Shown here in pieces: positions 6,822 through 7,726 of a stretch of 7,726 nucleotides of DNA. Under the pieces are notes generated by a model. It was not told where the DNA came from. It saw nothing but the letters and a program-made list of their open reading frames with translations, and did no database searches. Origin of the DNA: Candidatus Wukongarchaeum yapensis (GTDB taxonomy: Archaea; Asgardarchaeota; Wukongarchaeia; Wukongarchaeales; Wukongarchaeaceae); contig JAEOSI010000102.1 of assembly GCA_016840425.1 (NCBI GenBank), forward strand, positions 1-7,726. The letters run 5' to 3'. Each line of letters starts with the position of its first letter. The stretch's first letter is position 1. The position numbers were made by a program, and so were the translations under genes.

Positions 6822-6840
6822 AAAAAAGATAGAAAGAAAG
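6822..6840 (-). terminator. Putative oligo-T terminator after the Pro-rich orphan gene
   Basis: Minus strand reads CTTTCTTTCTATCTTTTTT 31-49 nt after the stop at 6871. Confidence 0.4.
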
Positions 6841-6870: not shown

Positions 6871-7422
6871 TTAGATTTCTTCGAGTTTTTTAAGGGCTTT
6901 TAATATTTCAGAACGTTCATCATCAGCCCCTTCGACTCCAAACTCTGGAAAAGTAGGCGATTGGGGAACAGGTGTTTCAGGCTCCGAAGTAGGAGGTGTA
7001 GATGGTGTGGCAGGTTTTGTATCCATAGAGGGGGGAGGAACAGTGGGGATAGACGGCGAAGTTGTAGACGTGGAAACAGAAGGAGTTGTCGATACAGCGG
7101 GGGAAGGTTTCACTTCGGGCGCAGGAACGGTAGGGAGAGGAGCAGGTACTTCAGGCACAACACCTACCTCTGAGGACGGTTCTTTTACCATAGTTTCTCG
7201 TGGCGCTAAGGTAACAGGGGGATAGATTGATGGCTTTTTTTCTGATTTTTCAAAAGTGATCATCCTTTGTTCTAACTCGGAGAGTTTTGACTCTAACCTG
7301 CTAAGCCTCTGATGTATCTCTTTAAAAGCTCCTTTACTAGCTTCGGAGAAAATTCTTAGGGTTTCAAGCATTTTCTGGGCCAGTCTAGAATCTATTTCCG
7401 TTTTTTCTTTTTTCTTTCCCAT
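6871..7422 (-). CDS. Hypothetical protein (183 aa): N-terminal helix and coiled coil, Pro/Ser/Thr-rich linker, acidic patch and C-terminal amphipathic helix
   Basis: ATG with GGTGG SD 9 nt upstream (7432-7436). Regular heptad F33-I36-L40-L43-L47-L50-M54-F57. 28 Pro in residues 64-159. Ends EGADDERSEILKALKKLEEI. No family recognised. Confidence 0.85.
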   Translation of the reverse strand: MGKKKEKTEIDSRLAQKMLETLRIFSEASKGAFKEIHQRLSRLESKLSELEQRMITFEKSEKKPSIYPPVTLAPRETMVKEPSSEVGVVPEVPAPLPTVPAPEVKPSPAVSTTPSVSTSTTSPSIPTVPPPSMDTKPATPSTPPTSEPETPVPQSPTFPEFGVEGADDERSEILKALKKLEEI

Positions 7423-7487
7423 TTAAATACGCCACCAAAAACTGAAAAATAAGAAGAAAGTGAATTGTGAAAACAAATTCTAATTAT

Positions 7488-7512
7488 TATGTACCTACTA
7501 TCCTAGTACATA
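7488..7512. promoter_or_regulatory. Inverted repeat TATGTAC-N11-GTACATA, either an operator or a terminator hairpin
   Basis: 7-bp perfect arms, extendable to 9 bp with one bulge, in the 117-nt gap between two co-directional genes. An adjacent T7 tract lies on the minus strand at 7512-7518. Confidence 0.4.
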
Positions 7513-7539
7513 AAAAAATTTTGGTTTCATTCTATGATG

Positions 7540-7726
7540 TTAACTAATGCGTTTAATTTTTGGCTTAATGTTAACAGGATAAATTTTCACATTAGTGCCC
7601 TTTTGCCCCTTGTAACGAAGGTTAAAATCGGATATTTCACAATTTGTAGCCTCCAATTTACGCGGTATGTGAAGAGGCGTGGAACAGGCAAAAAAACGAA
7701 GGGCAGGATCAAAAGGAAGCCAGCCG
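7540..7726 (-). CDS. Partial CDS (3' end, 61 aa) of a probable transglutaminase-like (Cys-His-Asp) domain protein
   Basis: Frame open from the window edge (7725) to TAA at 7542-7540: GWLPFDPALRFFACSTPLHIPRKLEATNCEISDFNLRYKGQKGTNVKIYPVNIKPKIKRIS. GWxxxDP matches the motif carrying the triad Asp of transglutaminase-like domains. The rest of the gene is outside the window. Confidence 0.58.
   Translation of the reverse strand, partial: GWLPFDPALRFFACSTPLHIPRKLEATNCEISDFNLRYKGQKGTNVKIYPVNIKPKIKRIS

Follow-up and report, generated by a model that had tools for sequence, protein, structure and literature searches.

The 7,726-nucleotide stretch of contig JAEOSI010000102.1 from Candidatus Wukongarchaeum yapensis (the window) carries close to its end, on the minus strand, a gene coding for a protein of 183 amino acids. 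This protein is probably a cytoplasmic adaptor in which an oligomeric scaffold presents a docking helix on a flexible arm, a design found in a family spread across Asgard archaea. In the mechanism proposed, the 59-residue N-terminal helix would oligomerise as a coiled coil. A fast-evolving proline-rich arm of variable length, predicted to be disordered and seen to drift rapidly, would serve as flexible tether. The last 15-25 residues, composed of a Phe box and an amphipathic helix whose conservation is observed, would act as docking peptide for a slowly evolving external partner.

Placement of the protein as a divergent member of an undescribed pan-Asgard family of coil, proline arm and docking helix is well supported by sequence profiles. 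No description of this family was found in the papers searched and it has no Pfam entry. New here are the divergent branch formed by Hodarchaeota and Heimdallarchaeaceae with its charge-inverted tail, the link of its N-terminal helix to the wider family, and the apparent complementarity between a small partner gene and a membrane-anchored carrier of the tail. The term Hod/Heimdall branch designates the window's own genus (labelled Hodarchaeota) together with Heimdallarchaeaceae, a name taken from the source annotations; f-numbers designate taxonomic families in a set of 400 genomes of the phylum.

The gene and its selective regime

6871 to 7422, minus strand: complete coding sequence of 183 amino acids with its TAA stop codon (6871 to 6873), taken from the listing of open reading frames (ORFs); whole-gene omega 0.48, with regimes that differ by region.
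7432 to 7436, minus strand: GGTGG, a putative Shine-Dalgarno-like site 10 to 14 nucleotides 5' of the ATG, read directly from the sequence.

Selection was estimated from one species pair, the window gene and its orthologue L003 from a second species, which is annotated by NCBI as a hypothetical protein, has 81% identity and keeps gene order and length. The omega of the whole ORF (0.48) compares with 0.23 for the neighbouring gene ArcS. In Nei-Gojobori counts, codons 1-83 have 13.5 synonymous versus 2.5 non-synonymous differences (omega 0.04) and codons 160-183 have 3.5 versus 2.5 (omega 0.16), while the linker between them has 7.5 versus 33.5 (omega about 2) and an indel of 5 codons. Public data add 14 near-identical variants and three more clusters at 79-82% identity, and 17 variants from public sources repeat the pattern of conserved ends and drifting linker. 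Since the ends are under strong purifying selection and the linker drifts freely, the ORF is more than a chance feature: it is a real gene under domain-specific selection.

That the ORF is spurious, or an artefact of low complexity in GC-rich DNA, is hardly conceivable. Long antisense ORFs running through the Pro-rich region and the missing family match in Pfam and NCBIfam speak for it, but purifying selection differs by region, synteny and length are kept in the second species, a Shine-Dalgarno-like site is present and relatives at profile level exist throughout the phylum. Scans for bacterial-type promoters and terminators and for repeats (Tandem Repeats Finder) returned nothing relevant.

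Architecture of the protein

7240 to 7416, minus strand: long N-terminal alpha-helix, residues 3 to 61, with a basic GKKKEK start before the helix; predicted local distance difference test score (pLDDT) of about 97 in the AlphaFold2 (AF2) model, heptads with a/d positions.
7174 to 7239, minus strand: conserved segment after the helix, residues 62 to 83, including YPPVTL (YPx3L-like); near-invariant in the genus.
6946 to 7173, minus strand: predicted disordered linker rich in Pro, Thr and Ser, residues 84 to 159; pLDDT 37-52, omega about 2.1, 5-codon indel between species.
7102 to 7128, minus strand: linker island VPAPEVKPS, residues 99 to 107; P102, E103, V104, K105, P106 and S107 invariant across the Hod and Heimdall branches.
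7030 to 7050, minus strand: linker island IPTVPPP, residues 125 to 131; I125, P126, P129 and P130 invariant across the Hod and Heimdall branches.
6874 to 6945, minus strand: C-terminal module, residues 160 to 183, with a Phe box (EFG), an acidic stretch and the amphipathic helix RSEILKALKKLEEI running to the C-terminus; omega 0.16.

The AF2 model, built from a 4-sequence alignment, shows a predicted three-part architecture of long helix, disordered linker and terminal helix. In the long helix, eight consecutive heptad a/d positions are hydrophobic (F33, I36, L40, L43, L47, L50, M54 and F57), in addition to L19 and L22. The heptad register described by an earlier note, made from the sequence alone, is thus borne out, and helix 3-61 likely forms a homo-oligomeric coiled coil. 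[quoted passage not shown]

The linker of about 95 residues claimed by the same note corresponds to residues 64-159, 96 residues with 29% Pro, 16% Thr and 15% Ser. Disorder is predicted for it, over residues 62-165 in the AF2 model. Its longest Pro run is PPP. The many PxxP units attributed to it number nine, which is chance for the composition (7.7 +/- 2.0 in shuffles, of which 34% reach nine). Linker length, with about two-fold variation, and repeat content differ widely among lineages. The island VPAPEVKPS is possibly a remnant of an LPPAPKLPP element conserved in the soluble family found across the phylum. The acidic stretch EGADDE precedes the terminal helix, as had been noted, and the helix is modelled at residues 166-182 with a pLDDT of about 91.

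Searches with the protein itself gave little. The motif scan found no P(S/T)AP, PPxY, PIP box, HbYX, MIM2-like or strict MIM1 motif, and Pfam and NCBIfam returned nothing significant, only coiled-coil matches below threshold such as Syntaxin-6 N (E 0.05) and CCDC53 (E 1.6). With residues 1-85 as query, an exhaustive phmmer search of 1.84 billion representatives yielded no more than the cluster of the protein itself and a single, marginal coiled-coil protein, and the best score in the ESM Atlas (0.78) lies in the noise range. PDB profile searches with four family alignments returned coiled-coil, Pro-rich or designed-peptide matches only; the look-alikes of the tail are all designed self-assembling amphipathic helical peptides. 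The wide fold search with VIA-align found generic long coiled-coil helices over residues 1-71 only (Z<=6.2).

A terminal helix conserved in Heimdallarchaeaceae

Single-sequence searches reach only close relatives at 79-100% identity. A six-frame profile search of the 400 genomes gave weak matches with C-termini almost identical to that of the 183-aa protein. The 35-column profile made of this tail matches 31 of 31 Heimdallarchaeaceae genomes (including the protein HeimAB125_11730), both genomes of the own genus, and families f7 and f13, the f7 member being a partial ORF cut by the contig end. Matches are nearly always single copy, two genomes adding a second weak one. The relatives in Heimdallarchaeaceae, f7 and f13 have 160-300 amino acids and the same plan, with the tail always at the extreme C-terminus.

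When the own-genus alignment is compared by hhalign with that of 22 Heimdallarchaeaceae members, only the 25-residue tail aligns (probability 96%, E 4e-9). Thirteen of 15 tail positions are identical between the two groups, and their N-terminal helices lie beyond profile detection. The earlier note had counted a non-conserved terminal helix as evidence against its own proposal; these alignments show that no part of the protein is better conserved from lineage to lineage than this helix. The note's tethered single-helix ligand on an oligomerising scaffold agrees with both the architecture and the conservation of the tail, from which docking is presumed.

Matches of about 500 amino acids to the first tail profile in f22 are internal to an amidase and were discarded as false positives. 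In genome G032 (L016:1495-2313 (-)) the Heimdallarchaeaceae family gene is split into ORFs of 141 and 121 amino acids, whether by frameshift, stop codon or sequencing error.

A soluble family across the Asgard phylum

The protein was first taken for an orphan, a view that no longer holds after the relatives in all 31 Heimdallarchaeaceae genomes and those found by a combined tail profile, which matches 257 of the 400 genomes and scores the 183-aa protein at E 4.8e-12. Soluble carriers outside the Hod/Heimdall branch have 200-240 amino acids and occur in f14, f17, f18, f21, f22, f28 and f29 and, as a fragment, in f2. They present an N-terminal helix, a short conserved hydrophobic motif, Gly/Pro-rich repeats and a basic-ended tail, and there is one copy of this soluble family per genome. 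Its members (HeimAB125_11730 and MFX0162351.1 among those of the pan-Asgard family) are annotated as hypothetical and have the N-terminal helix, the architecture and the tail core in common with the 183-aa protein. Residues 10-52 of the own-genus alignment match residues 8-53 of the phylum-wide soluble family in hhalign (probability 82%, E 1.1e-5), and the core [RK]xE[ILM][LM]xxLx[KR]L is present in the 183-aa protein from R170 to L180.

The Hod/Heimdall branch departs from this pattern in several respects. Its tail has a charge-inverted, truncated end, finishing in acidic LE-[ED]-[IL] with a free carboxyl end where the wider family has LKK-[IFL]-M plus a few residues. The soluble proteins of the branch are without GPP-type repeats, those of Heimdallarchaeaceae having an extra second helix, and neither these repeats nor the TLFSLLSGG-type motif of the phylum-wide family was found in the arm of the 183-aa protein. 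The 183-aa branch also differs in having no actin neighbour and no adjacent small partner gene.

This partner gene codes for a protein of about 90 amino acids and adjoins the gene of the soluble family in seven families of Asgards (e.g. L082:2307-2570 (+) and L088:861-1154 (+)). Its profile detects the control genomes G189 and G304 at E 2.5e-41 and 1.6e-36, and it has no match in two own-genus, three Heimdallarchaeaceae and single f4, f7 and f13 genomes. The genomes without it are exactly those of lineages carrying the membrane-anchored family described next, so that in the 10 genomes tested the small partner gene and the membrane-anchored carrier have an apparently complementary distribution.

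Membrane-anchored and other carriers of the tail

The genome of the window encodes a paralogue of 284 amino acids (G000:C215:830-1681 (+), L060) with an N-terminal transmembrane segment, a coil, an acidic and Pro-containing linker and a terminal helix whose core differs from that of the 183-aa protein at two of 11 positions. Its Y-x-x-G-E-I-S-type helix has a CdvA-like coiled-coil match below threshold (E 0.0023). A near-identical tail stands on a membrane-anchored coiled-coil protein encoded in this one genome, which makes the tail a portable ligand; the partners addressed by the soluble carrier and by the membrane-bound one are probably related.

The membrane-anchored family occurs in 76 of the 400 genomes (f1, f4, f6, f7, f8, f9, f13, f30 and f33) and in none of the 135 f22 genomes. 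By hhalign its tail matches that of the phylum-wide soluble family at 98.8% (E 7.5e-17) and that of the soluble Hod/Heimdall proteins at 60% (E 8.6e-5). Another carrier, in f11, is a multi-pass membrane protein of about 570 amino acids (L083:1316-3034 (+), G067) with a Pro-rich linker and the same terminal helix, present in all 22 f11 genomes.

Several observations accompany these carriers. The membrane-anchored gene adjoins rpiA in f1, f4, f8 and f30, and in Heimdallarchaeaceae and f4 it follows genes for apparent A/V-ATPase subunits D and F, known from N-terminal sequences only. Its juxtamembrane helices weakly resemble (E 0.007) a repeated helical unit of PDB entry 8whn_A, a 'Ribophorin 1 superfamily protein'. 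In f21 (2/2 loci; L084:51-635 (-) and L096:2660-3211 (-)) genes for small Ras/Arf-like GTPases are divergently oriented beside the soluble gene, and in the own genus (2/2; L061:3-506 (-) and L062:215-805 (-)) they stand in this way beside the membrane paralogue; this neighbour was not seen in the other lineages sampled.

Possible links to the actin system

What functional hints there are on the partner all point to the actin system. In f22 a divergent actin paralogue lies 0.15-3.3 kb downstream of the family gene, on the same strand, at nine of 10 loci from five genera; the tenth locus ends inside the start of the divergent actin gene. This actin is 43-46% identical to the host (Hod) actin, and a canonical actin with 76% identity is encoded elsewhere in the f22 genomes. 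The f22 relatives also carry GGPPKAPP-type repeats, which are VASP-like, and a VASP peptide is bound weakly by Heimdall LC3 and Thor profilins (PMC8410842). The divergent actin genes are at L087:92-1213 (-), L089-L095 and G189:C1:673383-674456, an LmbE-like deacetylase gene being sometimes found in between.

The host has genes for a canonical actin (445 bits to Pfam Actin), for actin paralogues and for a profilin. Since this Asgard genome codes for actin and profilin, and also for ESCRT-III and MIT proteins, the host is of the kind for which the earlier note had held its proposal most significant. The cytoskeletal adaptor that it envisaged gains indirectly from the VASP-like repeats and actin neighbour of f22 and loses from the lack of an actin neighbour in the own genus.

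The best mechanistic analogue is, in our judgement, Arcadin-2, the crenactin regulator of Pyrobaculum calidifontis (PDB 5LY3), whose C-terminal helix behind an unstructured linker docks in a hydrophobic groove of crenactin with a Kd of 31 nM (PMC5173319). Both proteins have a conserved short C-terminal helix after a non-conserved unstructured linker, and in Arcadin-2 the helix alone is a functional ligand. They differ in that Arcadin-2 binding is Trp-dependent whereas the tail of the 183-aa protein has no Trp, and in that Arcadin-2 is encoded in the arcade cluster beside crenactin whereas the 183-aa gene is not near an actin gene. No sequence similarity between them was detected, in PDB profile searches that cannot see a 17-residue peptide chain.

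WH2 domains, with which the tail had been compared, bind in the cleft of G-actin that separates subdomains 1 and 3. The face from R170 to L177 (I173, L174 and L177, of LLxxI type) is indeed present and the spaced LKKT/V is, as the note itself said, absent, but membership in the WH2 family is rejected. The protein has no LKK[TVA] and ends six residues after L177, and PF02205 gave no match in a six-frame scan of the genome (E<=1) or in hmmscan (E<=10) of the full protein, of its N-terminal part and final 39 residues, and of seven relatives. Like WAVE and WASH, the protein has an oligomerisation helix, a Pro-rich region and a terminal amphipathic helix in this order, with an I-L-x-x-L face and, in the relatives, LKK-I/F. 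Unlike WH2 proteins (WASP, WAVE, VASP GAB, thymosin beta4), it lacks the spacer, the extended LKKT/V, the acidic/Trp (A) and C regions and WH1/EVH1/SHD domains. Descriptions of WH2-like elements in Asgards are limited to the LKKT-like motifs, four residues long, of gelsolins (PMC9433394).

The 183-aa protein might itself be an actin-system regulator: a hydrophobic groove on actin, or on an actin-related paralogue, would receive its terminal helix, and the coiled coil would make it multivalent. We hold this unlikely, though far from negligible. The actins and profilin of the host, the co-oriented divergent actin and proline repeats of f22, the resemblance of the I173/L174/L177 face to that of WH2 helices and, by analogy, the Arcadin-2 precedent all speak for it. 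They are set against the missing WH2 match, an LKK-I/F that in the relatives comes two residues on, inside a continuous predicted helix, and not as LKKT/V at the canonical spacing of 5-6 residues, and a 183-aa protein that ends in LEEI and is without polyproline. Actin synteny is moreover limited to f22, and the main text of a preprint on Lokiactin co-immunoprecipitation lists profilin, gelsolins and an Arf GTPase and does not list this family.

A bolder version, which we also regard as doubtful, makes the docking helix of all carriers a ligand for the groove of actin or divergent actin. This would cast the family as an archaeal factor for actin assembly or sequestration, one older than, or parallel to, the regulators of WASP/VASP type; its proline arm would recruit profilin-actin, and the Hod/Heimdall form would be a derived regulator working beside the membrane carrier in the lineage closest to eukaryotes. 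Independently of this extension, the loss of polyproline repeats and the change from a basic to an acidic tail end mean that the Hod/Heimdall branch may have another mode of binding, or a role as regulator or competitor.

Comparison with ESCRT ligands

MIM1 motifs follow the consensus [DE]xxLxxRLxxL[KR] at the C-terminus and bind the groove between helices 2 and 3 of the Vps4 MIT domain. The MIM1 comparison made earlier was right on the hydrophobic spacing (I173, L177 and L180) and on Ala replacing the conserved Arg. Membership is nevertheless rejected: the hydrophobic positions alone fit, positions 0, 6 and 11 are R170, A176 and E181, so that all three diagnostic charges are wrong, and the protein has no ESCRT-III (Snf7) fold. 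Its likeness to the MIM1 tails of Vps2/24/46 consists of an amphipathic Leu/Ile helix at the extreme C-terminus, with hydrophobic residues at i, i+4 and i+7, which an acidic stretch and a flexible linker precede. It has neither the conserved Arg nor the flanking charges of those tails, two positions being charge-inverted, and neither the ESCRT-III core nor its gene context is found. Asgard MIM1-like motifs have been reported on Vps2/24/46 only (PMC7240154).

The partner-binding E3B peptide of CdvA binds as a strand, not as a helix. CdvA of Thermoproteota resembles the present proteins in its succession of anchor, coiled coil, disordered linker and C-terminal partner-binding peptide, the membrane paralogue being the parallel to a membrane-proximal recruiter; it differs by its PRC barrel, which they lack, and PF18822 never matches the 183-aa protein (E<=10). 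Membership in the CdvA family is rejected: the C215 paralogue alone gives a PF18822 score, of 18.4 bits for a cut-off of 30, and two of 13 members of its family match.

An ESCRT-linked adaptor, in which the Vps4 MIT domain would take the tail as a MIM1-like ligand, or another ESCRT module would bind it, and the protein would be an analogue of CdvA that recruits or regulates ESCRT-III/Vps4, is in our estimation very improbable. The spacing at MIM1 positions 3/7/10 agrees with it, the ESCRT-III proteins of the host end in acidic stretches followed by amphipathic Leu/Ile helices, and MIM1-like motifs of Asgards are Leu/Ile-rich C-terminal helices (PMC7240154). To these can be added the weak CdvA-like match of the membrane paralogue and a gene for a coiled-coil protein with ubiquitin E2 variant (UEV)/E2 fold located two genes off in Heimdallarchaeaceae. 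The charges of the tail are wrong at each diagnostic position (Arg instead of an acidic residue, Ala instead of Arg, Glu instead of a basic residue), however, the Snf7 fold is absent, the CdvA match is below threshold and restricted to two of 13 members, YPx3L is not conserved and P(S/T)AP was not found. A complete Heimdallarchaeaceae genome has no ESCRT cluster within 19 kb on either side of the gene, and the surroundings of the 183-aa gene have none either. The MIT/ESCRT reading is weaker than the actin reading as a candidate for the partner.

Self-packing of the tail and weight of the adaptor reading

The tail might also have no external partner and fold back on the coiled coil of the protein itself or of the membrane paralogue, as part of a helical bundle with a structural or autoinhibitory role. 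The near-ideal amphipathic heptad of the tail, its designed self-assembling look-alikes in the PDB and its pLDDT of about 91 in the monomer model are compatible with such packing, which we nonetheless find improbable. Between Hod and Heimdallarchaeaceae the N-terminal helix has diverged beyond detection with 13 of 15 tail positions identical, and the same type of tail is mounted on unrelated helical scaffolds, even on the protein with multiple transmembrane segments of f11; this constancy of the tail on scaffold helices that diverge or are swapped makes self-packing less likely. Alignments from the fold search never cover both helices, and the roughly two-fold variation of linker length is unexpected for a loop within one fold.

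The cytoplasmic adaptor remains the preferred explanation, and several points weigh against it. The direct match between the Hod/Heimdall tail and the phylum-wide soluble tail is weak (18%, E 1.4e-3), so family membership rests on a chain of profile matches and on shared architecture. Adjacency to actin was not found in the own genus, Heimdallarchaeaceae, f14, f17, f18, f21, f28 or f29 and is confined to one taxonomic family, and the 183-aa protein has no polyproline run longer than three. The tail could merely join coiled-coil packing, given its resemblance to an idealised designed amphipathic heptad, and its high pLDDT in the monomer might come from AF2 packing it against the long helix.

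Significance for Asgard cell biology

Hodarchaeota are the lineage placed nearest to eukaryotes. In this family a probably oligomerising helix and a proline arm go together with a near-invariant helix, presumed to dock, that is reused on membrane anchors. Present as a single copy in most Asgard genomes, it is a candidate for a missing adaptor layer, whatever its partner. Actin regulation in Asgards is thought to be carried out mainly by profilins and gelsolins (10.1101/2025.11.30.690169), and neither a nucleation or elongation factor nor a natural polyproline ligand of the profilins has been defined (PMC8410842). The branch of the 183-aa protein shows how the module evolved, with loss of the small partner gene, gain of the membrane-anchored carrier and charge inversion of the tail end. 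The question of the partner is directly testable with a 25-residue peptide.

Host genome and gene neighbourhood

6822 to 6840, minus strand: T-rich tract 33 to 52 nucleotides past the stop codon, a possible archaeal terminator, read directly from the sequence.
7540 to 7725, minus strand: 3' end of the upstream transglutaminase-like gene (Transglut_core), separated by a gap of 117 bp.

The window belongs to the genome of an Asgard archaeon of 2.16 Mb, 92% complete, with 38% GC. The MIT domain encoded in it adjoins two Snf7/ESCRT-III genes on contig C143. The neighbours of the 183-aa gene (transglutaminase-like, ArcS and RaSEA) are conserved within the genus only. The relatives in Heimdallarchaeaceae adjoin genes for an M28 peptidase and a GT4 glycosyltransferase, and the neighbours in f7 and f13 differ again.

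The full transglutaminase-like gene is found on the overlapping contig C16 (L004) and in L003 (Pfam Transglut_core, E 2.5e-18 and 8.7e-18). Positions 1-394 of contig C16 overlap window positions 7333-7726 at 97% identity, probably as a strain variant or an assembly split. The contig extends the upstream context with the complete transglutaminase-like gene, a hypothetical protein of 257 amino acids and an Ssb-like OB protein.

In Heimdallarchaeaceae, the protein with UEV/E2 fold encoded two genes off the family gene (L052:4909-5574 (-), L051) has 221 amino acids and a coiled-coil tail, a Vps23/Tsg101-like architecture located outside any ESCRT cluster.

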